The notes: generated from the letters alone by a model not told the origin. 64,000 bases of DNA from Candidatus Falkowbacteria bacterium RIFOXYA2_FULL_47_19 (GCA_001780275.1 MFGB01000016.1:27205-91204), one strand, 5' to 3'; positions 3,001 to 61,131 are shown, numbered from the stretch's first letter. Numbers and translations are program-made.

Positions 3001-5179
3001 GAATAATCCGGCCAATGGATTGGGTTTAAGCTGCGCTTATCAAGTGGCCACTAATACCTGCGATACCGCTGTTTGTCCGGCGCCTTTCGGCTGCATAAAC
3101 GAGGACGGTTCCGCGCCGACGCCCTTTAACGTATCGGGAAATCCCGATACCTGCGGTGTCTGCTGCTGCGATCCGGGCAGCGCGGATTGCGATCCTCTGG
3201 GTCTTGATTGCCAGGCCGATAAATCGCCTTGTACCGGCGGGAGCCGGGGACTCTGCTGCGGCTGCGATACCGATCTTGATTGTTCTTTGACGGGCATCCC
3301 TCCCGTCAACGTCGGTTGCGGGATCGATACCTGCTGTCGGGCCCGGCCCACCATCGTGCCTAATTCGGAGATGCCGGCCGATGACGCTGTCAACATTTGC
3401 CGCAACGCGGTTTTTTCCGTGACTTTCAATCAGCCGATGTCAGTCGCGAGTTTTTCCGGCAATGTCATCGTGGTGGGGGATTATATGGACGCTAATTGTC
3501 CGGCAGGCACGGAATACCTGGCTAGTGATATTCATATAAAAGACCGGAGTCGTTTGGCGTCCCGTATCTATAATAAGATGGGATGGCTCCTTTATCGGAC
3601 GATGGAAACCATCCTACCCTCTTTCCTGGCCGAAGCCTATACGCCCCCGGCCGCAAGCCGTAATTATTGCGCTATTGCCGGAAGTACCGGCGGTTCGACC
3701 TTAAGCGGGCAAACGACCCTGACCTTCACGCCTTCTTCTCTGTTGGAGGGAAACAGGCTTTATTACGTGATTATTAAAGGAGACGAGAATCTCGACTCGA
3801 ACCACGGCGTCCTTTCCGCTTGGGGGGTAGGTTTTAACGGCGGCCTGGACCTAACCTTTAACGGCATAACTTACCGCAATTCGCACGTCTGGTCATTCCG
3901 TACTTTAACCGAGCAGTCCCCCAATAACGGCGTTTGCGAACTTAACCGGGTTGACGTCAGGCCGGAATCTTATCTTTTCCAGACTACCCGCAACGATATC
4001 AATAATGAGAATGATACGAATCCGGCGGATCCGACTTTCGATAAGATCACGGACGCCGATAAGGTTTTTACGGCTTATCCGCTGAGCCGCGACGGCCAGG
4101 TTTTGGGAGCCATACCCGGTCTTTACGATTGGACCTGGACCTGGACGTCAGGCGCTCCCCAGGTAGCCGATATCGCGGCCCCGGGTCCGTTCCCGGTCGG
4201 AGGAGAAGATAAGAAATTGGTGGTTGCCGATGCTCAAACGACCGACGGCTATACTCTTCTTTCCGCCCGGGCCATAATCGGTTCGAGCGTCATACCGACT
4301 TCCCCGGCCGGCACGGTTTATCCCGGCAGTGCGGATGTTTATGTGTTTGTCTGCGAAAATCCCTGGCCTCCGGTCATCGGAGGATTGTGGGCGCCCTGGC
4401 AGGACGCGGCCGGGAATTGCACGCAGGCGGCGGGCGGCTGCGCCAATAGTTATAATTACGAGATCTATTATTGCCGCGACCAGGGTCAGGTCGGAACTTT
4501 CGACGATCTGCCCGCCATAACATATGACCGCGTGATCGTCGGCGAAAATCTTCCCGGTCTCCTTAAGGAATATTATTTCTTCCGGGAAGCGGCGCCGGTA
4601 TCGACGACTACCCTTAATGTGACCAATGGCGGCACAGGCGGAAGCGTGACCGCGACCTGGAATCCGCCGGTAGCCGGCGCCAGCGGTTATCGTCTTTACT
4701 GGGGAACGTCTCCGGGTTTTTACGGCAGCAATGTTGATGCCGGCAATATTTTAAGCTATAATATAACCGGTTTAACCGACGATATTCCTTATTATTTCAA
4801 TATCACGTCCTATAATGCCGCGGGAGCGGAAAGCGGGATGAACGGCGAATTCGGACCGGTCATTCCTAGGGACACGACAGCGCCGCTAGCCCCCACGGGA
4901 CTTACCGGTACTGCTGGCAACGGAGAGGCGCGTTTAAGCTGGAATCCCGATACAACGGGAAGTATAGCTGATTATACGGTTTATTTCCGGAGCGGTTCAG
5001 GCTGCGCCGGAGCTACTCCTCCGGCCTGCTACGGCAACTCGGAGGATATCGGGCTGGACGAAGAAATAATAATATCCGGATTGACGGCCGGCACTAATTA
5101 TTATTTCGCGATAACGGGGAGCGATGACGCCGGCAACGAAAGCGGATACTCGAATGAGGTTATGGTAATGCCCAATTAA
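2..5179 (+). CDS. giant Cys-rich surface/secreted protein with an N-terminal TM helix, IPT/TIG-like modules and two C-terminal fibronectin type III domains; probably 5'-partial in this window
   Basis: The ORF track gives 14..5179 (TTG start), but the frame stays open to base 2. Hydrophobic helix VAAVIGLIIILMSFAIASFVL. Dozens of Cys in CC/CxC/CxxC patterns. Three IPT-like units (PVIDWVSPPDGARGNLVTIGGRFFG, PYITGFEPSSGPPGQYVTIYGGGFG, PSICRITPIMGPNNSPVSLYGEYFG). Two FN3-like units (WNPPVAGASGYRLYWG..YYFNITSYNAAGAES and LSWNPD..YTVYF..YYFAITGSDDAGNES). Confidence 0.8.
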   Translation, partial: AKKTLVAAVIGLIIILMSFAIASFVLNSLLSATGGNACNPGDPPRSCGCYGTQVCQADNTWGPCSGVCGGGDVCCPLTGCQAPPCSPGGTVDCDSVPGPTCSSPDNMICDTFFTPGTYFCDPTACTCSPLGGFGDPCDGDSATAVCDATDSMCVSGLRCDDTVGSPTECRCIGAPVIDWVSPPDGARGNLVTIGGRFFGAAPGEVYFNGVLAPFPNTVNPNCTAFWSDNQVIVVVPAGAPMGANVIRLVRSSDTEEDTTDNARGPVIDPGFIVNNTVRPGLCQLSTTTGYYQDIITYQGINLPNGTRTYFGNYTDNIAALNSLFTDPQGRFGTAGVPDMRAGNTTTFASSTNPSNYLNFRVSTLTVTGPYITGFEPSSGPPGQYVTIYGGGFGAARGGSSVSFGATEADYDFPEDCADSVWTDHRVIVKVPDGISGSETIFMDVGSWPQIDTGTLNPAQFSITAGAPAPSICRITPIMGPNNSPVSLYGEYFGAADDTVWFHLNHGQTTHASWLDNPDPNADTIVTTVHQLAVTGPVSVEQSGSIGNSIDFTVGLCTNAPDPDAACGGVCCPSGTFRAGRCATDAAAMGGNGDGFVTIEDCYNRITSSVYEWEFTSETGTSTIPGGLGDPCYVDALTTPGCNPIYGPCQIGLYCDNDPASPTHCTCQTAAALESCSGYSMDQCLNSRFCPNSPGQCSTDPGGSTETVGTCDSSCSSVSPACAGGACSYNSVIDRCVDGSNCDLSPVFYDILNNPAQSYCADYSGAARWHLRTNLSCPTSTPGWIKIPPGNVCVNPNLPCLACANGLECLDDLVAPADEGVCAIAADICPPGATCAANRCELTSTPACECCCEIGQDARDCCVPLECTGSCGSGGSFGECSGCALAGTTQAERNDACNCTGTSGKFCDTADPGYPDGVCRDCTGLAGAADCLNIGVGSCCFDEKDNVDICRGGDGTILGGSCPYWNCLPVPNNDTCNTGAANAVIDGDYRDEVSCVAGCLMNNPANGLGLSCAYQVATNTCDTAVCPAPFGCINEDGSAPTPFNVSGNPDTCGVCCCDPGSADCDPLGLDCQADKSPCTGGSRGLCCGCDTDLDCSLTGIPPVNVGCGIDTCCRARPTIVPNSEMPADDAVNICRNAVFSVTFNQPMSVASFSGNVIVVGDYMDANCPAGTEYLASDIHIKDRSRLASRIYNKMGWLLYRTMETILPSFLAEAYTPPAASRNYCAIAGSTGGSTLSGQTTLTFTPSSLLEGNRLYYVIIKGDENLDSNHGVLSAWGVGFNGGLDLTFNGITYRNSHVWSFRTLTEQSPNNGVCELNRVDVRPESYLFQTTRNDINNENDTNPADPTFDKITDADKVFTAYPLSRDGQVLGAIPGLYDWTWTWTSGAPQVADIAAPGPFPVGGEDKKLVVADAQTTDGYTLLSARAIIGSSVIPTSPAGTVYPGSADVYVFVCENPWPPVIGGLWAPWQDAAGNCTQAAGGCANSYNYEIYYCRDQGQVGTFDDLPAITYDRVIVGENLPGLLKEYYFFREAAPVSTTTLNVTNGGTGGSVTATWNPPVAGASGYRLYWGTSPGFYGSNVDAGNILSYNITGLTDDIPYYFNITSYNAAGAESGMNGEFGPVIPRDTTAPLAPTGLTGTAGNGEARLSWNPDTTGSIADYTVYFRSGSGCAGATPPACYGNSEDIGLDEEIIISGLTAGTNYYFAITGSDDAGNESGYSNEVMVMPN

Positions 5180-5337: not shown

Positions 5338-6105
5338 ATGTTCGATAATATCGCCTCGAGTGATCGGAACAATGATCTTTCCGCTGCGCAAAAACAGCCA
5401 GCCGGCAAAGAAGCGGAAAATAACGATAAGGATAAAAAACCGCTTATGTCCGGCCGGACGGTAGAGGATATTTTCGCTGATACGGATAAGGCTGGCGCGG
5501 CCTTGCCCGCTCCGAAGGTTAAACCGGCTATTTTCCAACCCAGGACAAGCCCGGCTTTACTTGAGAATTACGGCCATGACGACATCAATTCCGCCGATAA
5601 ACACGCTTCAAAGAAGCTTTTGCTTTTGGCGGCCTTGATCATCGCCTTTATCGCGATAGCCGGGGGCGGTTATCTGATTTTCGGGCTTTTTTTCGATACG
5701 GCGGATAACGTACCTGCGGCCGAACCCATCGAAAACGATGTTTTTCCGGTAGGAACCAAGGATGATATCGTGATTCCGGTAAATAACGACGAGATACCGG
5801 TGCCGGACAATACGGCGCCGGAGGGCGAAGTTCCTCAGTTTACCGACACTGCTCCTGAAACGGAAAATAAAACGGATATTGATACCGACCAGGACGGGTT
5901 AACTGACGCGGAAGAGGAATCCTTAGGCACGGATACGATCAGCGCGGACAGCGATGGCGACGGCCTTTTTGACCGCGAAGAGGTAAGAGTTTACATGACC
6001 GACCCTTTAAATCCCGATACCGATGGAGACGGTTACGCCGACGGCGGAGAGGTAAATAATGGTTTTAATCCCAAGGGAGCGGGAAAATTGTACGATATGA
6101 ATTAG
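5338..6105 (+). CDS. membrane-anchored protein with thrombospondin type-3-like Ca-binding repeats
   Basis: Single TM segment (LLLLAALIIAFIAIAGGGYLIFGLFF). C-terminal repeats DTDQDGLTDAEE, DSDGDGLFDREE and DTDGDGYADGGE. Confidence 0.65.
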   Translation: MFDNIASSDRNNDLSAAQKQPAGKEAENNDKDKKPLMSGRTVEDIFADTDKAGAALPAPKVKPAIFQPRTSPALLENYGHDDINSADKHASKKLLLLAALIIAFIAIAGGGYLIFGLFFDTADNVPAAEPIENDVFPVGTKDDIVIPVNNDEIPVPDNTAPEGEVPQFTDTAPETENKTDIDTDQDGLTDAEEESLGTDTISADSDGDGLFDREEVRVYMTDPLNPDTDGDGYADGGEVNNGFNPKGAGKLYDMN

Positions 6106-23193: not shown

Positions 23194-25836
23194 TCAGATT
23201 TTTGAAATGATTTCATATAATTTGTCCGAAGGTTCCGATTTCAGTAATCGATCGATCGCTTTTCTCATGAGTTCTTTCCGGACAGGATCGAGCCGGCCGT
23301 AATTTTCGAAGGCCCGTTTTGCCAGATTAGCGGCTATCAGATGGTTGAATTTATCGATCGACGCGATTTTGGCGGCGATGAATTCGTATCCCTCTCCCGC
23401 CGGATCGTGGTATTTCGGGTTTCCGAGGAAAGAGAAAAGCAGAACGTGGATCTTATTGGGATTTTTCCGATCATATACCGGATCGTTTTCGGCCGTTTTT
23501 ATCCATTCCAGGACGCCCGGAAGCTCGCTTATCGCTTGCGCGCAAAGCCAATCGTCGATCGCCAAAGTATCGAGGCGCCAATCGGCATAGAAGCGTTCGA
23601 AAACCGTTTTTCTTTCCTTGCACCTTATATTGGTAAGGCAATACAGCACCGCTACCCGGTCGGTCATGTTATCGGCATTGGCGAACTGACTGCAAGCCAG
23701 TTCAATATATTCTTTTTTTCCCAGTAAGGCGAGATAGCACAAGGCTTTATTTTTGAGCGCTCGTCCGGCGATAGCTTCCCGATCATGGGCATAGGGCCGG
23801 CCGTCATTAAGGCTGTCGTAGATCGTTTTCAGTTTTTTTTCGTGGGCGCGGGCGATGCCCCGAATGAGGTGATTCCGGGCGCGGGCAACGGCGTTAAAAT
23901 CGCAAATTTCCATGTTTTCCAGAAGCTCTTTCTCCGAAGGCGGAGTCAGGGCAAGCGCCACGAAATCCTTGTCCAGAAAGCGGTCATCCAATAGCCGGCC
24001 GTAAGCGAAGATCAAGGCCGGATCAGCGGACGGCTCTTCACCTTTTTGGATGTGAGCGATCGATCTTTCGAGGTCCAGGACGGCAAATCTTTGTCCGGCT
24101 TCGTAGCGATTAAAAGGATCAGAATCGTACGCCATCAGGAAGGCTAATTCTTCCGGGGTATAATCGTAGAACAGCTTGACGGGGGCGGAGAAATTCCGCA
24201 AGAGCGACGGAATCGGTTTTTCCGTTATTCCCTTAAAAATGAAAGTCTGCCGTTTTTCATAGACCGTCAGGACCTTGGTCGCGAGCGCCGGGACAGAATC
24301 CGTTTCGCCTTTGAGGCGAAGCGACATATCCCGTCCTTTGGAATTAAGGAGTCCTACGGCCAGTGGAAAATAAAACGGTTTTTTATCGCTGCATTCCGGT
24401 GTGGGCGGGCAGTTTTGTTCGACTGTCAGCGAATAGGTTTTTCGCTTTTTGTCGTATTCGGTGCGAACGCGGCAAACCGGCGTGCCGGCCTGGTGGTACC
24501 AAGTTTCCCGGAACCGGGAAAGGTCCCGGCCGGAAGCTGTTTCCATGGCGGTTACGAAATCTTCGGTAGTAGCCGCCTGTCCGCGGTGATTGATTACATA
24601 AATTTTTATGCCGCGAAGATAATCTTCTTCTCCGACGAGCGTATGTATCATCCGGACAACCTCGGCGCCTTTACGGTAGGTGGTCGCGGTGTATAAATTA
24701 TCGAAAGATATCGCTTCCGACGGTTTTATGGGGGCCGCACCCGGGCCGGCATCTTCGGTAAACTGGTAATTCCTTAATCGATTTACGTCATCTATCCTTT
24801 TTATCGGCGCGGAGGCGGTTTCGGCCATGTAGGTTTGATCGGTAAAGACGGCCAACCCTTCCTTTAAAGTAAGCTGGAACCAGTCCCGGACGGTTACGAG
24901 GTTTCCGAACCAGTAATGGTCGGATTCGTGGTTGATGATCGCGGCGATATTCTGGTAATCAGAGTCGGTAGCTGTGGCTGGATCGGCTAAAATATAGCGA
25001 GAGCTGAAAATATTCAAGCCGGTGTTTTCCATGGCGCCGGCATTGAAGGAATCCGCCGCTACGATCATGTAAAGATCAAGAAGGTACGGCAGGCCGTATT
25101 TGTTTTCGAACCAGGAGAGTGAATCCTTCAGACATTCGAGGGCGTATTTCGTCCGGTTTTCGCTGCCGGAGTCAACGTAAATTCGCAATTCGATCAGGCG
25201 TCCGTTTTTTGCGGCGTATTTACCCTTGATCACGCCCAGGTTGCCGGCCACGGCGGCGAACAGATAACATGGCTTCGGAAAAGGATCGGACCAGATTGCG
25301 TAATGCCTGCCTGCCGGCAATTGACCGGTTTCGATCTCGTTGCCGTTTGACAGAAGTACGGGATATTTTTCCCGATCGGCTTCCAGGCGGACCGTATAGA
25401 CGCTAAGAACGTCCGGCCGGTCCGGAAAGTAGGTAATACGGCGGAAACAATCGGATTCGCATTGCGTACAGAGGATATTTCCTGATTTGTACAAGCCTTC
25501 GCAGGATTCGTTCGCGAAAGGGTCGATTCTGACTTCGGTTTCGAGGACGAAAGTTTTCTTTTTTGGTATATCCAGTATGACCAGATGATCCCTGGAAACC
25601 AAAAAACCAGATGGCGGTATTTTCCGGCCGTCGATCTTTAACGTTAAAAGTTCCATATTCTTGCCGTCAAGCAGGACGGGCGATCCTGATTTTCCCGTTT
25701 TGGCCGTGAACAGGAATCTGCCCGTTACGACCGCGTGGTCATCGTTGATGGAAATTGTCAGGCGAGTTTCCGTAATTTCAAAAGGATAAGGACGATAATC
25801 CGCCAGCCGTGTTTTTTCCGGTTTGTTTTCGTTCAT
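23194..25836 (-). CDS. pepN: aminopeptidase N (M1 family)
   Basis: GAMEN exopeptidase motif (NAGAMENTGLNIF). HESDHYWFGN is the HExxH motif, with a downstream E (LKEGLAVF). Length is 880 aa. Confidence 0.92.
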   Translation of the reverse strand: MNENKPEKTRLADYRPYPFEITETRLTISINDDHAVVTGRFLFTAKTGKSGSPVLLDGKNMELLTLKIDGRKIPPSGFLVSRDHLVILDIPKKKTFVLETEVRIDPFANESCEGLYKSGNILCTQCESDCFRRITYFPDRPDVLSVYTVRLEADREKYPVLLSNGNEIETGQLPAGRHYAIWSDPFPKPCYLFAAVAGNLGVIKGKYAAKNGRLIELRIYVDSGSENRTKYALECLKDSLSWFENKYGLPYLLDLYMIVAADSFNAGAMENTGLNIFSSRYILADPATATDSDYQNIAAIINHESDHYWFGNLVTVRDWFQLTLKEGLAVFTDQTYMAETASAPIKRIDDVNRLRNYQFTEDAGPGAAPIKPSEAISFDNLYTATTYRKGAEVVRMIHTLVGEEDYLRGIKIYVINHRGQAATTEDFVTAMETASGRDLSRFRETWYHQAGTPVCRVRTEYDKKRKTYSLTVEQNCPPTPECSDKKPFYFPLAVGLLNSKGRDMSLRLKGETDSVPALATKVLTVYEKRQTFIFKGITEKPIPSLLRNFSAPVKLFYDYTPEELAFLMAYDSDPFNRYEAGQRFAVLDLERSIAHIQKGEEPSADPALIFAYGRLLDDRFLDKDFVALALTPPSEKELLENMEICDFNAVARARNHLIRGIARAHEKKLKTIYDSLNDGRPYAHDREAIAGRALKNKALCYLALLGKKEYIELACSQFANADNMTDRVAVLYCLTNIRCKERKTVFERFYADWRLDTLAIDDWLCAQAISELPGVLEWIKTAENDPVYDRKNPNKIHVLLFSFLGNPKYHDPAGEGYEFIAAKIASIDKFNHLIAANLAKRAFENYGRLDPVRKELMRKAIDRLLKSEPSDKLYEIISKI

Positions 25837-34992: not shown

Positions 34993-35063
34993 CGGGCCGT
35001 AGTATAACGGTAGTACGCGAGCATGGGGTGCTTGTAGCGAGGGTTCAATTCCCTCCGGCCCGA
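34993..35063 (+). tRNA. tRNA-Pro (anticodon GGG)
   Basis: Hand-folded cloverleaf. Acceptor CGGGCCG / CGGCCCG. D-arm GTAT-aacggta-GTAC. Anticodon stem CGAGC / GCTTG with loop AT-GGG-GT. T-arm GAGGG-ttcaatt-CCCTC. Discriminator A. CCA is not encoded. Confidence 0.9.
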
Positions 35064-38236: not shown

Positions 38237-38392
38237 TTATCACGAGCGCGGCGATCCTGGGATGAACCCGGGACGGCCCGAAGCGATTTATCGCGAACGG
38301 CCGGAGTACTGGCTCTATGACCCGCCGGCAACCATTCCCTAAAAGGAAAAGGTGCCCCTTCCAGCCCCGTAATACCGGGGAAAGATGATTTT
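38237..38392 (+). promoter_or_regulatory. SAM-I (S-box) riboswitch; core 38283-38392, preceded by a half-copy-like segment
   Basis: Core: UUUAUCgcgaaCGGCCGGAGuACUGGCuCuAUGAcccGCCGGCAACCauucc-cuaaaa-ggaaaaGGUGCCccUUCCAGccccg-uaaua-cgggGAAAGAUGA. This matches the GGAGGGACUGGCCC.AUGA..CCCGGCAACC...GGUGCCAAUUCC...AGAUAA pattern of SAM-I. Candidate promoter TTGCTT-17-TATAAT at 38177-38205. Lies upstream of metK. Confidence 0.75.
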
Positions 38393-55286: not shown

Positions 55287-56729
55287 ATGAAAAAAAATAT
55301 TCTTCTGGCGATTGGCGCTTTTATCGTTATCGGCCTCTTATTCGTTCCGCTCCTGGATTTTTTTTATGATCTGGGCGGCTTCGCTAAAGCCGATCCGCGG
55401 CCGTTTACCGTCGAGGGCTTATTCGCCGGGCGGAGCGGGGAGGGAGGGGAAATTTTTCCGGTAACCGTAGCCACTTCAGCGGAGGCCTATGAAGATTTGC
55501 CGGTCGGAGAGGTTTCCTTCCACGAGATTGCCGATCCGAAAGGGACCGTTGTCCTTATTCCGCAGAATCACCAGTATCCCGGTTCGGCCGCCGAGGATCC
55601 GAAAAACGATTCGGCGGAGAAAACCCAGGCGCAGATATACGATATCCTGAAGCACCTGCACGAAGAAAATGGCATCGATTTTATAATGACCGAGGGCGAC
55701 CTTAATGGCGACGTGCCTGCGGAAAAGCTCGCCGCGCTTGCCGAGAAGATCGATCTGCGCGACGAATTCGCCGTTCGAATCGAAAAATTGCGGGTTGAAG
55801 CCGACGGAAAATTAGATCCGGGAGCGGAAAAGAATCTATTAGTGAAAGCGGAAAAATTGATCGCCTCCCTGGACCGGGAGATAATACTGAAAGGCGCCCC
55901 CTATAAGCTTAAGGCCGAAGGCGTGGATTTTAAGCTTGTCGGGTCGGAAAACGAGGAGACTCGCGAAGAGTGCGCGGATATTGTCCGGAATTATATTTAC
56001 CAGCAAGACCAGTTAAAAACCTGCAACGGTTTGGCGGCGGGGAATGATTCATCGGTCTTGACTGGAAACGGTACAACCGCCGCTACGCAGGAGAAGTTGC
56101 GGGTTCTGAAAGATAAATTAAAAACGTTTAAGGACCTGCCTTTATCAGAAAGGCTTAAGGCCCTGCAAACGGAATTCAAATCAAAGGATCTTTCTTTCAT
56201 GATCGCGTCGGAAGACCTTAATGGCTTAACGGGCGGTAATTCGCTCCTGGAAAAGATCCGGCAGATCAAGACATTAAGCGCGGGCCAGGTGTCCCTTGAC
56301 AAAGAGTTTAGCGAGCTTTTGACGGTTGCTAACGCCCGCGGCGAAAAGGCTCTAACCGACAAATTAACGGCGGCGAAAGAAGCGTACCAGAAGATCGAAG
56401 ACTTTAAAAGCGGGAAGCAAGGCGCTTTGACCTCGTCTTCTCCTTCCAGAAGCGATAATCCCTACAAAACGATCACGGATCCGGTCAAGCTGCAAACGAT
56501 GATAAAAGAGTCGGAGGGTATGATCCAGACGGTGGTTATCGACCAAAGGAACCGGGAAACGGCGGTTAATTTCGTTTCGGCAATGGAGACGGCCGGAGAA
56601 AAAATCGGCATCCTGCAATTCGGCGCCGGCCACGAAGAAGGTCTGATCAAAGAATTGAATAACCAGGCTTTAAACGTCATCGTTATCAAGGCGGATGAGG
56701 TTTTAAGAAGAGAGAAGACCGGGGAATAA
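55287..56729 (+). CDS. hypothetical secreted/membrane-anchored protein
   Basis: N-terminal TM segment ILLAIGAFIVIGLLFVPLL. 480 aa. Promoter TTGACA-17-TATCAT at 55174-55202. Confidence 0.6.
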   Translation: MKKNILLAIGAFIVIGLLFVPLLDFFYDLGGFAKADPRPFTVEGLFAGRSGEGGEIFPVTVATSAEAYEDLPVGEVSFHEIADPKGTVVLIPQNHQYPGSAAEDPKNDSAEKTQAQIYDILKHLHEENGIDFIMTEGDLNGDVPAEKLAALAEKIDLRDEFAVRIEKLRVEADGKLDPGAEKNLLVKAEKLIASLDREIILKGAPYKLKAEGVDFKLVGSENEETREECADIVRNYIYQQDQLKTCNGLAAGNDSSVLTGNGTTAATQEKLRVLKDKLKTFKDLPLSERLKALQTEFKSKDLSFMIASEDLNGLTGGNSLLEKIRQIKTLSAGQVSLDKEFSELLTVANARGEKALTDKLTAAKEAYQKIEDFKSGKQGALTSSSPSRSDNPYKTITDPVKLQTMIKESEGMIQTVVIDQRNRETAVNFVSAMETAGEKIGILQFGAGHEEGLIKELNNQALNVIVIKADEVLRREKTGE

Positions 56730-56763
56730 TATTGATTATAAAAAACAGGTATACAGGTATATA

Positions 56764-56800
56764 GAGCGGCTCGGCTGATAATATCAGCCGGGCGCTTTTA
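56764..56800 (+). terminator. intrinsic terminator
   Basis: CGGCTGATA / TATCAGCCG stem extended by AGCG..CGCT, followed by TTTTA. Confidence 0.7.
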
Positions 56801-56811
56801 TTGACAAATCA

Positions 56812-57318
56812 TCAATTGAACAGCTGGTCTAAAATAAAAATATCGCCTAAGGCGCCGCCGTCCGCGTTGAGGATCTTACTGTCTTTCCGGAAGAGCCGGT
56901 CCAATACGAACAGATCGCCCGGGCCGAGAGGGCCGTTATCTTCGAACAGTCGGCCGTTATTCATGATCTGGTCCAGGATAATAAGATCGCCCAAGGACGT
57001 CCGGCCGGGTTCAAGAAGAGAATGTCCGTCAAACAGTTTATCCAAAACGAACAGATCGCCCAGATTCAAATTTTCGGCTTGTTCCATGAGCGCGTATTCT
57101 TCCGAGGCCGGGTCATAGCCGTTGATATCAGGACCGAATAAACGCCGGACAGCATCCTCCGCCGTCCCTTCGATCGGCTTGTTTTTATCGTCAGCGGAAT
57201 CGTCTATCTCCAGAGCGACAGTATCGGCCAATTCATGCATGCGCGCCGAAGCGGCCAAATACCAGAAATTAGAAGCGGTCATGATAATTATAGTAAGTAT
57301 GATAATCGGTCTTTTCAT
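56812..57318 (-). CDS. secreted LGDLFxLDxLF-repeat protein, paralog 1
   Basis: Signal/TM N-terminus. Motifs LGDLFVLDKLF, LGDLIILDQIM, PGDLFVLDRLF and LGDIFILDQLF. The start codon sits in a CATATG context. Confidence 0.75.
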   Translation of the reverse strand: MKRPIIILTIIIMTASNFWYLAASARMHELADTVALEIDDSADDKNKPIEGTAEDAVRRLFGPDINGYDPASEEYALMEQAENLNLGDLFVLDKLFDGHSLLEPGRTSLGDLIILDQIMNNGRLFEDNGPLGPGDLFVLDRLFRKDSKILNADGGALGDIFILDQLFN

Positions 57319-57388
57319 ATGGTTTACTTGTCTTTATACCTTAATAAATATTCCTTAAAATCGCGTGAATAAATTTTTGCGTGAAAAT

Positions 57389-57418
57389 AAAAAAGACGGC
57401 TATTTCGCCGTCTTTTTT
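57389..57418 (-). terminator. intrinsic terminator of paralog 2
   Basis: AAAAAAGACGGC-gaaata-GCCGTCTTTTTT on the minus strand, followed by ATTTT. Confidence 0.8.
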
Positions 57419-57439
57419 GATCCCTTTGTACTTCTTGGG

Positions 57440-57829
57440 TTATTTCGTTGTACTGTCGCTGCCGTCGAACAGGCTACCACCGTTGTCATTGAATAATCGA
57501 TCAAGGATAAAGAGCTCGCCTAGATTACTGCCACCCCCGATCCCTCCGCTACCGAAGAGTCGATCAAGCACGAAGAGGTCGCCCAAGTCGCTGCCGCCCC
57601 CGATCCCTCCGCTACCGAAGAGTCGATCAAGCACGAAGAGCTTGCCTAGATTATTATTATCATTATCCGAGCCGAAAATATCTCCGCCGTTGCCTCCGCC
57701 AAAAAGCTGATCCAGGATCAGGAGATCCCCCAAATTACTATTACTGCTGTTCAGGACATTAGCGGAAGCCGTTACCGGCATTAAAGTTACGGCCAAGATC
57801 GATAGACTTATTAGTATTTTGTTGATCAT
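57440..57829 (-). CDS. secreted LGDLFxLDxLF-repeat protein, paralog 2
   Basis: Signal peptide ..LMPVTASA. Motifs LGDLLILDQLF, LGKLFVLDRLF, LGDLFVLDRLF and LGELFILDRLF, separated by Gly-rich linkers. Contains an internal 63-bp tandem duplication. Confidence 0.8.
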   Translation of the reverse strand: MINKILISLSILAVTLMPVTASANVLNSSNSNLGDLLILDQLFGGGNGGDIFGSDNDNNNLGKLFVLDRLFGSGGIGGGSDLGDLFVLDRLFGSGGIGGGSNLGELFILDRLFNDNGGSLFDGSDSTTK

Positions 57830-57911
57830 ATGATTTTGGCTTTAAGCCTTAATTAATAATTAATCCCGGGAGAAATCTTATTATTGAGAATGATTCCCGT
57901 ATATATAAAAA

Positions 57912-57935
57912 GACGGTTGGGGAAATTTTTATGAG
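57912..57935 (-). promoter_or_regulatory. CTCAT-N15-CGTC bipartite promoter-like motif upstream of paralog 2
   Basis: The minus strand reads CTCAT aaaaatttccccaac CGTCTTT. The geometry matches the three ATCAT-N15-CGTC copies. Confidence 0.45.
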
Positions 57936-57962
57936 AGGATTACAATCTCTTTACGATAGATT

Positions 57963-58008
57963 AAGAATAAAATAAGAGACGAGATATCTCGTCTCTTATT
58001 TTATTCTT
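57963..58008. terminator. 46-nt perfect palindrome (bidirectional terminator)
   Basis: AAGAATAAAATAAGAGACGAGAT followed directly by its exact reverse complement ATCTCGTCTCTTATTTTATTCTT. Confidence 0.75.
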
Positions 58009-58024
58009 ATCTCAAGATAAATAT

Positions 58025-58657
58025 CTAATTGACCGCCAGTGAACCGGGCGCTACCGGAATTTGTTCGATATTGGCGTTGGTAATCCCTAAGCCCCTATCC
58101 TCAATGAGGTTGAACGCGCCGGCCGCGCCGATTACCGGTATAATGCTCCTGTCCGTCGGATTGACGTAATAAAGCTTGCCGCTGTCCTCGACCTTAAGGA
58201 GGAATTTGCCGGCCAAGCGGGACGGAGCAGTACCGCCGAACGCGTCAAAATTCGCGTTCGTAATACCGGTGGCTTGTTCCCCCATGATGGTCAGGGCAGC
58301 CTGCGGTCCGTTCAGGTAATAGCGCTGCGTGTCTGCCGGGTTTACGTACCAGGCTCGTCCATCAGCTTCGGTCTGGATAAGGATCCGGCCGGACAGCCGC
58401 TGTCTTAAGGGAGTCGGCGCCACCGCTACCGGTGCTGTCGTTTGCTGCGGAAATAGCTGGTCCAGGATGAACAGGTCGCCTAAATTAGTTTGCGAGTCGT
58501 CACCTACATTGAACAGCCTATCCAGCGCGAACAGATCGCCGATATTGCCCGCGCCGTTTAGACCGTTAAGAATTCCGGCGGCGGCGGCCGGAGCCATCGG
58601 CGACATAACGCCCATTACGACTGCCGCGACCGCGAAAACGGAAATTATTCTCTTCAT
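58025..58657 (-). CDS. secreted LGDLFxLDxLF-repeat protein, paralog 3, fused to two GEAWYV-type modules
   Basis: Signal peptide ..SPMAPAAAAG. Motifs IGDLFALDRLF and LGDLFILDQLF, then GRILIQTEADGRAWYVNPADTQRYYLNGPQAALTIMGEQATGIT and GKFLLKVEDSGKLYYVNPTDRS...LIEDRGLGIT. Confidence 0.8.
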   Translation of the reverse strand: MKRIISVFAVAAVVMGVMSPMAPAAAAGILNGLNGAGNIGDLFALDRLFNVGDDSQTNLGDLFILDQLFPQQTTAPVAVAPTPLRQRLSGRILIQTEADGRAWYVNPADTQRYYLNGPQAALTIMGEQATGITNANFDAFGGTAPSRLAGKFLLKVEDSGKLYYVNPTDRSIIPVIGAAGAFNLIEDRGLGITNANIEQIPVAPGSLAVN

Positions 58658-58860
58658 ATGATTGCATCTTGATACGAGGACGAAAGTTTATTCCGAAATA
58701 AAACTTCGGAATTATTTTTCGATCCTCGATGTTCGATTGTTTAACAACGCTTCCCCCGACCTTTGTTTTCACCCTTGAAACCTTAAAAAGATTTCAGGGA
58801 AGCGATTTGTTCTTTAAAGATATAATTCTAATTCTTTTATTATGACCCCATAATATATAT

Positions 58861-58884
58861 GACGCTTGATTTTAATATTATGAT
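58861..58884 (-). promoter_or_regulatory. ATCAT-N15-CGTC bipartite promoter-like motif upstream of paralog 3
   Basis: The minus strand reads ATCAT aatattaaaatcaag CGTCATA, inside a 60-nt block homologous to 59629-59688. Confidence 0.5.
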
Positions 58885-58890
58885 TGAATT

Positions 58891-58928
58891 AAATTAAGAG
58901 ACCGGGGTACACCACGGTCTCTTAATTT
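58891..58928 (-). terminator. terminator of paralog 4
   Basis: AAATTAAGAGACCG-10 nt-CGGTCTCTTAATTT. Confidence 0.7.
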
Positions 58929-58950
58929 ATTTTATCCGACTAGTTCTAAT

Positions 58951-59469
58951 TTAGAGAGCATCGCCGCCGAAAAGCTGATCCAGAATAAAGATATCGCCCA
59001 GATTGGCGTTATCGCCATTGCCGAATAATCTGCTCATGATGAAAAGCTCTCCCAAACCGCCGCTGCCGGTATCTAGTATGCCGCCGCTCTCTCCGGAAGT
59101 GCCATCGTTAAAGAGCTGATCCAGGATAAAGATATCGCCCAGATTGGCGTCGGTGTCATCGCCGCCGAAGAGCCTGTCCAAAACGAATAATTCTCCCAGG
59201 TCGCTGCTGCCGCTGCCGGTATCTAGTATGCCGCCGCTCTCTCCGGAAGTGCCATCGTTAAAGAGCTGATCCAGGATAAAGATATCTCCCAGATTCGCGT
59301 TGGTGTCATCGCCGCCGAAGAGCCTGTCCAAAACGAATAATTCTCCCAAGTCGCTGCTGCCGCTGCCGCTATCGAGTATGCCCGCGTTAGCCGTAACCGG
59401 CGCGGTTATGACGGCGCCGATTGCCAGAGCGAATACCGCTAGACTGGCAATTATTTTTTTTCCTACCAT
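58951..59469 (-). CDS. secreted LGDLFxLDxLF-repeat protein, paralog 4 (three tandem 50-aa units)
   Basis: Likely start is MVGKKIIASLAVFALAIGAVITAPVTANA at 59469; the track uses GTG at 59514. The unit GILDxGSGSSDLGELFVLDRLFGGDDTxANLGDIFILDQLFNDGTSGESG occurs twice nearly identically (150-bp DNA repeat, 59083-59382), followed by a diverged third unit. Confidence 0.8.
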   Translation of the reverse strand: MVGKKIIASLAVFALAIGAVITAPVTANAGILDSGSGSSDLGELFVLDRLFGGDDTNANLGDIFILDQLFNDGTSGESGGILDTGSGSSDLGELFVLDRLFGGDDTDANLGDIFILDQLFNDGTSGESGGILDTGSGGLGELFIMSRLFGNGDNANLGDIFILDQLFGGDAL

Positions 59470-59652
59470 ATGTTTAGTTTTTAGGTTTATTAACTTGATT
59501 ACGATCTTCTTCACGACCTTTGGTCGAGGGCAAGGTCATCGGCAGGGGTCATGTCCTTATTTGACCTTTTTTAGATGAAGAAGTTAATAGAATTATATCT
59601 TCAAGAATTGATTATTTATTTTATTTATCTTTTATCGCCCCCTAAATATTAT

Positions 59653-59676
59653 GACGGATAACTTTCATATTATGAT
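59653..59676 (-). promoter_or_regulatory. ATCAT-N15-CGTC bipartite promoter-like motif upstream of paralog 4
   Basis: The minus strand reads ATCAT aatatgaaagttatc CGTCATA. Confidence 0.5.
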
Positions 59677-59721
59677 TATGTTAAATTCATGCGTTTTTAG
59701 TCTTACCTGTGGATATTAGCC

Positions 59722-59884
59722 AAATAAAAATCTTCCCCCGACCTTTAAAAACGGTTACGCTTCCCTTTGATATGTTAATATCTTTAAAGAGGCTTATAAC
59801 GCGGGAAGCGCAACCGGGGGAAGATTTAAGACCCTGTCTTCAGATCCCGAGAAAGGCAGGGTTTGTGTTTATAAGCCTCCTAAA
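59722..59884 (-). ncRNA. candidate small RNA (about 160 nt) between an ATCAT-N15-CGTC motif and an intrinsic terminator
   Basis: Nested helices TCTTCCCCCG / CGGGGGAAGA (59731-40 / 59815-24) and CGCTTCCC / GGGAAGCG (59758-65 / 59803-10), followed on the minus strand by TTTTTATTT. A competing 11-bp helix GAGGCTTATAA / TTATAAGCCTC (59789-99 / 59869-79) sequesters an AGGAGG. Extra hairpin at 59832-59862. No start codon after the SD-like sequence. Confidence 0.5.
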
Positions 59885-59890
59885 ATCTAA

Positions 59891-59914
59891 GACGGTCCCC
59901 GTTATTATTATGAT
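59891..59914 (-). promoter_or_regulatory. ATCAT-N15-CGTC bipartite promoter-like motif upstream of the candidate sRNA
   Basis: The minus strand reads ATCAT aataataacggggac CGTCTTA, directly after the terminator at 59921-59955. Confidence 0.5.
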
Positions 59915-59920
59915 AGGATT

Positions 59921-59955
59921 AAAAACAAAAAGCCGCCCGCTAAAAGCCGGGCGGC
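59921..59955 (-). terminator. intrinsic terminator of the 59963..60376 gene
   Basis: GCCGCCCG-8 nt-CGGGCGGC, with TTTTTGTTTTT on the minus strand. Confidence 0.8.
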
Positions 59956-59962
59956 AACGATT

Positions 59963-60376
59963 TTATGGAGTTGGCCGGATGATTAAAAATTGTAAATCCG
60001 GATCCGGTTCAATGGACACGATGCAGATATCATTGGGGCCGGTAACCCAGATGATGTCTTTCGGGTGTTTCGTCCGATATTTTTTCCGCAAGTATCCTTC
60101 AGACCCAAAGGAGTGGACAACCTTGCCCTTGAGCACGAGACGATAGATGATTTCGCCCTTGCCCTTGTGGAGAGCCGCGTTTTTAAGGGCTTGGGGGATG
60201 CCGTCTATTTCCGCGACGGTTTTGTTCGGGCGGGAAAATATCCAGACGGGTTGAGGATGGCTCATCTCCTCTTTGATTTCATGGGTTATAAGCGCGAAAA
60301 TGCTCAATATCGCCCCGACGATCATTGCTGTCTTCACGAAAAAATACAAACCATTAATGATTTTGAAAGAGCGCAT
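59963..60376 (-). CDS. hypothetical membrane-anchored protein
   Basis: 137 aa with an N-terminal TM helix (TAMIVGAILSIFALI), followed by its own terminator. Confidence 0.55.
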   Translation of the reverse strand: MRSFKIINGLYFFVKTAMIVGAILSIFALITHEIKEEMSHPQPVWIFSRPNKTVAEIDGIPQALKNAALHKGKGEIIYRLVLKGKVVHSFGSEGYLRKKYRTKHPKDIIWVTGPNDICIVSIEPDPDLQFLIIRPTP

Positions 60377-60567
60377 CTTCGTTCCTTTCTATGATTTAAG
60401 GTAAAATGTGAGTTTTATATTTAATTATAATAGCATATAAGTTAAATTTTGTCAAGTTGTTACTTTTTTGTTAAAAATTCGTTATAAATATTGTTAGCCA
60501 AACAAATAAATATATATTATAATATATACTAGAGCGTGGCTCTAGTTATGAAATTAACTTAAATTTT

Positions 60568-61131
60568 ATGAATATCGGCGTGGATGAAATATCGGCGATA
60601 AAACAATGCCAAGCCGGAGATCCGGAAAAATTCGGCGTTTTATACGATAAATATATAAAAAAGATCTACGATTTCGTTTATTACAAGACCCATCACCGGG
60701 AAACGGCCGAAGATCTTACTTCCAGAATTTTCATGAAAGCTCTGGAGAATATCGGCGGTTTTGATCCCGGCAAAGGCACTTTTCAGGCCTGGATCTATAG
60801 GATCGCGCGCAATACGGTCATTGATCATTACCGGACGTCCAGAGCGCACGCGAATATCGAAGACGTTTGGGATCTGTCCGGGAATGATGATCCGGAACGG
60901 GATATTGACGCGAAAACCAAACTCGAAAAAGTTAGAAAGTATTTGGCGAAACTGAAACCGATCGAACGGGATATAGTGATCATGCGCGTTTGGCAGGGGA
61001 TGAATCACAAAGAGATCGCGGCCGTAATGGGCAAAACGGAGGCGGGAGTTAAAATGGCTTTTTCGCGGACGATAACAAAGCTCCGGGAAGAGATGCCGTT
61101 GGCGATCTTTCTTTCCTTTTTTATGCAGTGA
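60568..61131 (+). CDS. ECF-type RNA polymerase sigma factor
   Basis: Region 2 (AEDLTSRIFMKALENI..FQAWIYRIARNTVIDHYR) and a region 4 HTH (MNHKEIAAVMGKTEAGVKMAFSR). The 5' UTR hairpin ACTAGAGC-gtg-GCTCTAGT lies at 60530-60548. Confidence 0.88.
   Translation: MNIGVDEISAIKQCQAGDPEKFGVLYDKYIKKIYDFVYYKTHHRETAEDLTSRIFMKALENIGGFDPGKGTFQAWIYRIARNTVIDHYRTSRAHANIEDVWDLSGNDDPERDIDAKTKLEKVRKYLAKLKPIERDIVIMRVWQGMNHKEIAAVMGKTEAGVKMAFSRTITKLREEMPLAIFLSFFMQ

Follow-up and report, generated by a model that had tools for sequence, protein, structure and literature searches.

We analyzed a 64,000-nucleotide stretch of DNA (the window) from Candidatus Falkowbacteria bacterium RIFOXYA2_FULL_47_19 (GCA_001780275.1, MFGB01000016.1:27205-91204) and found on its minus strand, at 59716-59886, a predicted orphan non-coding RNA that is a stand-alone copy of a conserved hairpin normally located in the 5' leaders of LGDLF-repeat genes of the Candidate Phyla Radiation (CPR). 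On the basis of its sequence features, we consider there to be about an even chance that the orphan is a leader-derived small RNA that is transcribed from an extracytoplasmic function (ECF)-type promoter, ends at its own remodeled hairpin, and most likely serves as a decoy. The window contains four LGDLF-repeat genes (paralogs 1 to 4), all on the same strand as the orphan.

Anatomy of the orphan unit

The initial annotation of this region had drawn an RNA of ~160 nt between the third ATCAT-N15-CGTC site and a U-tract, folded as a long nested hairpin of two helices. Both descriptions were borne out by our analysis, which yielded the following features, all on the minus strand.

59891-59914 (-): promoter-like site ATCAT-N15-CGTC, ATCATAATAATAACGGGGACCGTC, located by pattern search; the homologous block reaches ~59925
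59716-59886 (-): orphan non-coding RNA, ~165 nt, predicted from just past CGTC to the U-tract
59869-59885 (-): 5' element UUUUAGGAGGCUUAUAA, the orphan version of the conserved LGDLF transcript 5' end RGGGKY-AUAA; pairs with the apical loop
59832-59861 (-): hairpin 1, CCCUGCCUU...AAGACAGGG, 9 bp, from prefix and constrained folds; 100% conserved in the sister species L001
59728-59827 (-): long nested hairpin, the orphan copy of the LGDLF-leader motif, with AAAGGUCG in its 3' bulge
59783-59799 (-): loop segment UUAUAAGCCUCUUUAAA, complementary to the 5' element
59739-59746 (-): core AAAGGUCG, conserved family-wide, abutting the 5' side of the 3' arm of the closing helix
59716-59727 (-): U-tract UUUUUAUUU, after the hairpin, resembling that of an intrinsic terminator; identical in L001
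59688-59706 (-): tail CUAAAAACGCAUG, resembling the end of leader 4 (CUAAAAACUAAACAUAUG) as read from the sequence

The complete unit (59914-59716, minus strand) thus comprises the promoter-like site, a 5' hairpin, the 100-nt nested GC-rich hairpin, and then UUUUUAUUU; the terminator of a 137-aa gene lies upstream of the promoter-like site at 59955-59932 (-). An open reading frame (ORF) scan of the minus strand identified no ORF of at least 20 aa on the strand of the RNA, and reading of the sequence revealed no AUG or GUG inside it. When folded as a 179-nt RNA, the orphan had a minimum free energy of -59 kcal/mol (z = -4.1), and none of 200 shuffles folded as well; the nested hairpin alone gave -43.4 kcal/mol. 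The outer helix, AAAUCUUCCCCCG/CGGGGGAAGAUUU (59827-59815/59740-59728), contains 13 bp with 100% complementarity and encloses the inner helix, GGUUGCGCUUCCC/GGGAAGCGUAACC (59814-59803/59765-59753). An intrinsic terminator is defined by a stable GC-rich stem followed by a U run, and the orphan possesses both, its 13 perfect pairs running directly into UUUUUAUUU. It differs from such terminators in the size of the hairpin (100 nt, with a 38-nt apical loop and a 12-nt bulge), in bearing a conserved family motif, and in its location downstream of a promoter-like site rather than of a gene.

The sequence beyond the U-tract contains a vestigial AUG 55 nt past the core, which opens a 4-codon ORF (MNLT*) and is preceded by CUAAAAAC, another sequence that resembles the end of leader 4. 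The 55-nt spacing fits the 44-67 nt range between core and start codon in the gene-linked copies described below. The vestigial AUG and the leader-4-like tail point to a probable origin of the orphan from a leader, and with the AUG at the usual distance the orphan looks like a whole duplicated promoter and leader fused to promoter 4.

A conserved hairpin motif in LGDLF leaders

MAFFT did not align the 5' arms of the leader hairpins across loops of 22-76 nt, and the motif was characterized with a Python descriptor scan, a loop-trimmed alignment, and shuffle tests. The motif was defined by a closing helix of at least 7 bp whose 3' arm begins 0-7 nt after AAAGGUCG. We recovered 19 instances from nine loci of divergent CPR bacteria: the window, L001, and seven loci (L029, L031, L032, L026, L033, L034, and L035) reached via homologs of paralogs 3 and 4. 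The layout consists of a pyrimidine-rich 5' arm, a loop of 22-76 nt that often contains inner hairpins, AAAGGUCG, 0-7 nt, and a purine-rich 3' arm. In an 18-row alignment of the core AAAGGUC, five columns (AA-GUC) were invariant and two more were at least 90% conserved, the deviants being two rows with CAAGGUC and AAAAGUC. The distance from core to LGDLF start codon was 44-67 nt in gene-linked copies and 106 nt in leader 3, in which an extra 54-nt hairpin has been inserted. By comparison with the core, the arms of the closing helix diverge widely across instances with their complementarity retained, as illustrated by the following pairs (5' arm / 3' arm).

CUUCUUCA / UGAAGAAG
UCUUCUUC / GAGGAAGG
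CACCCCUU / AAGGGGUG
CCUCUCC / GGAGAGG
AUCCUCUG / CAGAGGAU
GAAUUUCCCCU / GGGGGAAAUUC
AUAUUAUUAUAU / AUAUAAUAAUAU

In the loop-trimmed alignment, 93% of the closing-helix cells were paired, compared with 62% in shuffles and 52-58% when the partner was slid, and 63 cells carried double changes versus 18 in shuffles. Since the helix register had been chosen sequence by sequence, each upstream region was also shuffled, which gave p < 0.05 for 14 of 20 instances individually. The copies are strand-specific, always in the sense of the LGDLF genes, with none elsewhere in the 64 kb, and AAAGGTCG occurs outside leaders only at the frequency expected by chance (~320 kb scanned). An RNA-level element rather than a DNA-binding site is favored by the covariation, by the uniformly sense orientation, and by the confinement of the copies to LGDLF leaders. 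A family of cis-regulatory leaders had been suggested in the initial annotation, and this suggestion is strengthened by the finding that divergent CPR lineages have the hairpin and AAAGGUCG ahead of their LGDLF genes and that the closing helix covaries.

The 3' arm is purine-rich in nearly all instances (GGGGGAAG, GGAGAGG, AAGGGGUG, and similar) and never flipped, and a second AAAAGGUCA directly follows the 5' arm in leader-4 types. The arm sequence, besides its pairing, may be read by a partner.

Within the window, the motif copies of the two leaders are located as follows.

59473-59676 (-): promoter 4 (59676-59653) and leader 4; motif copy at 59587-59500, CUUCUUCA...AAAGGUCG-UGAAGAAG
58658-58884 (-): promoter 3 (58884-58861) and leader 3; motif copy at 58808-58742, CGCUUCCCU...AAAGGUCG-GGGGAAGCG

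The orphan conforms to the motif, with AAAGGUCG at 59746-59739, an offset of 0, and a 12-13 bp helix (shuffle p = 0.001). Its arms, AAAUCUUCCCCCG and CGGGGGAAGAUUU, are pyrimidine-rich on the 5' side and purine-rich on the 3' side; the copy is in the sense of the LGDLF genes and 3' of a CGTC-type site, its 5' arm beginning 67 nt past CGTC (family range 33-99 nt). It departs from the gene-linked copies in that no LGDLF start codon lies 44-67 nt downstream, only the 4-codon ORF at 55 nt; the core is followed instead by the U-tract and then by promoter 4. Peculiar to the orphan are a closing helix (13+13 bp) that exceeds all others of the family in length and GC content, the U-tract, which is absent from most gene-linked copies, and the lack of a gene.

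Sequence words shared by the orphan with the leaders of paralogs 3 and 4 had been pointed out from the start, together with the leader-3 hairpin, and all are present. AAAGGTCGGGGGAAG was found exactly twice, at 59746-59732 in the orphan and at 58764-58750 in leader 3; CGCTTCCC/GGGAAGCG occurs in leader 3 at 58748-58755/58797-58804; and the degenerate AAAGGTCGTGAAGAAG is present in leader 4. The CGCTTCCC/GGGAAGCG word is lineage-specific, the family-wide conserved element being AAAGGUCG. The 54-nt hairpin at 58728-58675, just ahead of the paralog 3 start codon, is limited to the window and L001, leader 3 of L029 and L031 being without it. With this hairpin folded, the motif-to-start spacing of leader 3 regains the family norm. 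An upstream ORF in leader 4 was ruled out as a leader peptide; its frame is not conserved between the window, L001, and L029.

Neither Rfam 15 nor the searchable literature describes the motif family, although the regulatory logic that it suggests is familiar. At gathering thresholds, Rfam 15 matched only a tRNA and an S-adenosylmethionine (SAM) riboswitch in the window, both elsewhere; a permissive scan (E <= 10) of 56700-60600 returned nothing over 59716-59886 or the leader hairpins; and a scan of five related loci gave no match at the motif sites. The novelty of the structure, which had been made contingent on the absence of a known Rfam family, is thus not refuted. Full-text literature searches on 'LGDLF' and on CPR structured-RNA motifs found nothing relevant. 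The SAM riboswitch lies at 38285-38391 (+; 51.6 bits) and the tRNA at 34993-35063 (+).

Pairing between the 5' element and the loop

The initial annotation had also proposed mutually exclusive helices, in which the loop pairs alternatively with an upstream sequence containing AGGAGG. The pairing itself is real: an inverted-repeat search matched UUUUAGGAGGCUUAUAA (59885-59869) to UUAUAAGCCUCUUUAAA (59799-59783) over 17 nt with 88% complementarity, and the best ungapped helix was 13 bp in the window (shuffle p = 0.001) and 15 bp in L001 (p <= 0.001). A U-to-A change in the 5' element of L001 turns the one mismatch of the helix, a U-U, into an A-U pair. The exclusivity did not stand in the manner of an antiterminator, since the two helix sets share no nucleotides. 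Their strand order (S1a, S2a, S1b, S2b) is that of an H-type pseudoknot, and both helices may therefore coexist as a pseudoknot in the modeled RNA, with exclusivity confined to nested folding. When folding is nested, the 5'-to-loop helix is the structure favored by the first 100-125 nt of the transcript, in which the 3' arm of the terminator is still missing, and the full-length RNA prefers the terminator fold (-59 kcal/mol) to one in which the 5'-to-loop helix is forced (-40.7 kcal/mol), a gap of 18 kcal/mol.

As a family-defining feature, this pairing was rejected. Significant support was obtained for the orphans and marginal support for leader-4 types (GGGGGCGA/UUGCCCUC, or UUGCCCCC in L029; p = 0.04-0.14); in L035 the pairing is present but marginal (p = 0.013), and leader-3 types lack it. 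The element also does not resemble a riboswitch or attenuator, in that the alternative helix joins the 5' end and the loop and sequesters no terminator arm; nor is there a ligand-type core, with ~8 nt conserved family-wide and loops of 22-76 nt. A ribosome-binding role of AGGAGG was rejected, as it has no start codon after it and a Shine-Dalgarno (SD)-like word precedes only ~7 of 35 long ORFs.

Conservation and distribution

A genome scan with the sigma factor encoded next to the orphan placed the window in Candidatus Falkowbacteria, within the Patescibacteria (CPR), and identified one syntenic relative, L001, a sister species whose sigma factor is 92% identical to that of the window; the other loci recovered were without LGDLF genes. 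A search for further orphan homologs via the flanking 137-aa gene found homologs of that gene only in this species and L001, and a metagenome scan with paralog 4 returned only the same strain and four GC-rich false positives (L019-L022). The identities between the window and L001 were as follows.

Orphan RNA: 91.4%
Third codon positions, most neighboring genes: 72-86%
Third codon positions, 137-aa gene: 58%
Third codon positions, paralog 4: 55% (30% gapped alignment)
Neighboring spacers: 67-71%

After removal of two alignment-end artifacts, the orphans of the two species differ at 14 positions, 13 among 95 unpaired nt and 1 among 68 paired nt; a Fisher test of stem avoidance in which the two artifacts were still counted as unpaired differences gave p = 0.002. 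The orphan promoter is retained in L001, with ATCATAATAAT and CGTCTTAGA intact and 5 of ~9 spacer bases changed.

In the nearest outgroup, L029 (paralog 3 68% identical), the 267-nt gap holds one promoter, one leader-4-type hairpin, and no orphan, so the orphan is specific to the lineage of the window and L001. A second, independent gene-less unit was found in the distant L032 (paralog 3 59% identical), in a 590-nt gap before the first LGDLF gene (5440-5650, +). It comprises a CGTC site, the motif at 5559 (CUUUUCU...AAAGGUCGAU-AGAGAAG), in which a helix of 10 bp is nested, and, at 5614-5643, a canonical terminator of 13 bp, followed by a second promoter and a normal leader; no credible ORF was found in the unit. 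Gene-less, terminator-ended copies thus appear, from their sequences, to have arisen or persisted in at least two lineages, which counts against pure junk.

Promoter-like sites and a candidate sigma factor

Besides the orphan site, ATCAT-N15-CGTC sites are located ahead of paralog 4 at 59676-59653 (-) and ahead of paralog 3 at 58884-58861 (-); a fourth match at 23782 (+) is unrelated and GC-rich. The four matches compare with 0.52 expected in 64 kb, and no shuffle reached four. The three clustered sites share a homologous block of ~65 nt that includes the first ~20 transcribed bases, and the AATCATAAT...CGTC(T/A)TAT architecture also occurs upstream of LGDLF genes in L029, L031, and L033. The -35 word of the sites is AATCAT, compared with the usual AAC of ECF promoters. 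A candidate for the sigma factor that reads them is encoded nearby.

60568-61131 (+): ECF-type sigma factor, divergent, with Pfam matches to Sigma70_r2, r4_2, and ECF

An ECF-like sigma factor also accompanies the LGDLF clusters in L025, L029, L032, L033, and L034.

Interpretation of the orphan and its alternatives

We propose that a whole unit of ECF-type promoter and leader was duplicated, so that paralog 4 came to have a second such unit upstream, after which the closing helix of the upstream copy would have been lengthened to 13+13 GC-rich pairs and the U-tract gained. Transcription from the orphan promoter, presumably when the neighboring ECF sigma factor is active, would stop after ~165 nt and release a small non-coding RNA. 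This RNA would display the AAAGGUCG hairpin in trans and compete with the LGDLF mRNAs for a factor, protein or RNA, that reads the hairpin, and this competition would tune LGDLF expression post-transcriptionally. The 13-15 bp 5'-to-loop pairing would form first during transcription and may set motif display or terminator efficiency.

Decoy RNAs that copy the protein-binding hairpin of a leader include EutX/Rli55, which sequesters the ANTAR protein EutV, and CsrB/RsmZ, which titrate CsrA. Like them, the orphan is a short terminator-ended RNA with the recognition element of the 5' leaders of putatively regulated mRNAs; unlike them, it has a postulated partner and one motif copy rather than several, and there is no sequence similarity (GGA or ANTAR hairpins versus AAAGGUCG). 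The Listeria RNAs SreA and SreB derive from leader riboswitches, are released by premature termination, and still lie upstream of genes, with a known ligand. What the orphan has in common with them is a terminator-ended structure of cis-regulatory leaders that may also occur as a small RNA in its own right, but the orphan has lost its gene, and the motif has too few conserved positions to look like a riboswitch aptamer. With no sequence or Rfam match, the orphan belongs to neither of these groups nor to that of the sigma-E-dependent small RNAs considered below.

Several observations weigh against the proposed decoy. The promoter and terminator calls are at the level of consensus only, in a phylum with poorly known promoters, and a terminator scan limited to loops of at most 8 nt did not call the orphan hairpin, whose loop exceeds 8 nt. 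The sole stem change in L001 replaces a G-U pair with a G-G mismatch. Compensatory changes, on which the initial annotation had made the structure depend, are found in the closing helix across the family; within the orphan itself there is no compensatory double change, because the only two species that carry it, at 91% identity, cannot supply one. Leaders 3 and 4 show a similar level of conservation (87-90%), so that the high value for the orphan might stem partly from regional constraint or recent gene conversion. The covariation count was obtained with a helix register picked for each sequence, as noted above. Finally, the orphan bears a single motif copy; known decoy RNAs usually carry several.

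The best surviving alternative, which we regard as unlikely, is that the orphan is a non-functional relic: a tandem duplication, or loss of the coding region of a paralog, would have left a promoter, a leader, and a vestigial start, with the hairpin and U-tract merely stopping stray transcription. The tail that resembles the end of leader 4 and the AUG, whose distance from the core is typical of the family and whose frame runs for just three more codons, are consistent with this explanation, as are the absence of the orphan from L029, by which it is not essential to the cluster, and the fluidity of paralog number and repeat number in the locus. A relic would not be expected to show 91% identity to L001 where neutral-looking sequence shows ~70-80%, substitutions that avoid stems, or -35 and -10 words that are kept while the spacer diverges. 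The closing helix, which no gene-linked copy equals in length or GC content, and the gain of a U-tract suggest remodeling rather than decay, and the second gene-less copy in L032 also argues against this possibility.

A cis-acting role is rather unlikely as well. The orphan promoter would then be a distal promoter of paralog 4; the 5'-to-loop helix or a bound factor would determine how efficiently the hairpin acts as a conditional terminator, and read-through would add a long 5' untranslated region to the paralog 4 mRNA. The orphan does share the orientation of paralog 4 and lies only ~45 nt upstream of promoter 4; the 100-125 nt prefixes form the 5'-to-loop helix ahead of the terminator; and the AUUUUAAUU that comes after the leader-4 hairpin of L029 hints that an attenuator was ancestral. 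Against such a switch, the alternative helix sequesters neither terminator arm, the terminator is favored by 18 kcal/mol, and paralog 4 keeps its own complete promoter and 180-nt leader, as in the orphan-less L029. The leader hairpin as a general attenuator was rejected on the grounds that the U-tract is missing from most gene-linked motif copies.

The initial annotation had likened the orphan to the sigma-E-dependent small RNAs of enterobacteria. MicA, RybB, and MicL rely on Hfq for seed pairing and do not descend from the leaders of their targets. The orphan resembles them in its small size and lack of coding capacity, in its putative ECF-sigma-type promoter and terminator-like end, and in its location near, or putative co-regulation with, genes for envelope or secreted proteins; it differs in being leader-derived, in having no Rfam match, and in that its link to a sigma factor is putative. 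The comparison holds as an analogy only. That the orphan is a trans-acting, base-pairing RNA of an ECF regulon, its loop pairing with LGDLF or other mRNAs, seems improbable to us: the promoter, short length, lack of coding capacity, and terminator end would suit this role, and the loop sequence UCUUUAAAGAUAU is perfectly complementary over 13 nt to AUAUCUUUAAAGA of leader 3 (11 pairs kept in L001), but the complementary stretch is palindromic over 10 of its 13 nt, is AU-rich, and pairs weakly, and what stands out most across the family is a common structured motif rather than a seed sequence. In addition, we know of no Hfq or ProQ in CPR bacteria.

A DNA-level element (an operator, a repetitive extragenic palindromic (REP)- or miniature inverted-repeat transposable element (MITE)-like repeat, or an integron attC-like site) or a tiny protein-coding gene is hardly credible: the imperfect inverted repeats, variable center, and short conserved core, or a 9-codon UUG-initiated frame (MRFPRYKPL) read inside the stem, are outweighed by arms that covary with complementarity kept, unlike a sequence-specific DNA-binding site, by copies that are strand-specific, in sense with the LGDLF genes, and nowhere else in the 64 kb, by a core that does not match attC GTTRRRY, and by the burial of the UUG frame in a helix, with a Y-to-H change in L001 and no AUG or GUG in the RNA. 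The attC, REP, and operator readings were accordingly rejected on strand specificity, covariation, and restriction to LGDLF leaders.

The LGDLF genes and other features of the locus

The genes of the cluster are listed below, together with a convergent gene found beside it in the window and in related loci.

56812-57318, 57440-57829, 58025-58657, and 58951-59472 (-): four LGDLF-repeat genes, encoding signal-peptide proteins
55287-56729 (+): ~480-aa convergent gene in the window
6107-7738 in L026 and 7743-9236 in L032: ~480-aa convergent gene
1625-3091 in L033, 7044-8462 in L034, and 7223-8662 in L035: ~480-aa convergent gene

The LGDLF proteins are built from LGDLFxLDxLF repeats, those of the window have no Pfam match, and the family is rare (129 representatives in 1.84 billion). 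Every related locus recovered has the Pfam-less gene of ~480 aa in convergent orientation to its LGDLF genes, and most also have an ECF-like sigma factor nearby; the ~480-aa gene is a conserved partner of LGDLF clusters.

Several further observations were made in the locus. UAGAAUUAUAUCUUUAA of leader 3 is the reverse complement of UUGAAGAUAUAAUUCUA of leader 4 (17 nt, 94%; 58814-58830 and 59588-59604 in the window); the same inversion is found in L029, and the two mRNA leaders could pair mutually. Paralog 1 is without an ATCAT-N15-CGTC site and has a direct repeat, TTCACG-N10-13-TTCACG, that is kept in three species (window ~57345-57390 (-), L029 ~3030-3050, and L031 ~1266-1290) and suggests a different regulator. 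Paralog 4 contains an internal 150-nt tandem duplication with 97% identity (59059-59358, -); other strains have versions of 122-125 aa, so that repeat number is polymorphic. The gap between paralogs 3 and 2 holds a perfect 24+24 nt palindrome with no spacer (57962-58009), which is likely a bidirectional terminator and gave only weak, chance-level Rfam matches to small RNAs (sraA and Yfr19). Several long ORFs of the window that lack an SD sequence have GGGGG instead, and the LGDLF genes have A-rich upstream regions with no SD.

Implications

Bacteria of the CPR/Patescibacteria are uncultured and have small genomes with few recognized regulatory RNAs, and to our knowledge their post-transcriptional regulation is almost unexplored. 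We suggest tentatively that the AAAGGUCG hairpin could represent a new cis-regulatory RNA class for CPR-specific secreted LGDLF proteins, from which gene-less, terminator-ended copies would have split off repeatedly (window/L001 and L032) to serve in trans as decoys under the same ECF sigma factor. If this is true, the orphan would be among the first regulatory small RNAs described in Patescibacteria, and it would form with the leaders the first leader/decoy RNA pair. The locus is a compact, testable system with a dedicated ECF-type sigma factor, a small regulon of secreted repeat proteins, a leader hairpin, and stand-alone copies of it. The leader hairpin offers two handles, a covarying stem and an almost invariant 8-nt core; AAAGGUCG in the 3' bulge could be used for pull-downs, covariance-model searches, and metatranscriptome mapping. 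The orphan copies would provide a natural experiment on how leaders become small RNAs.

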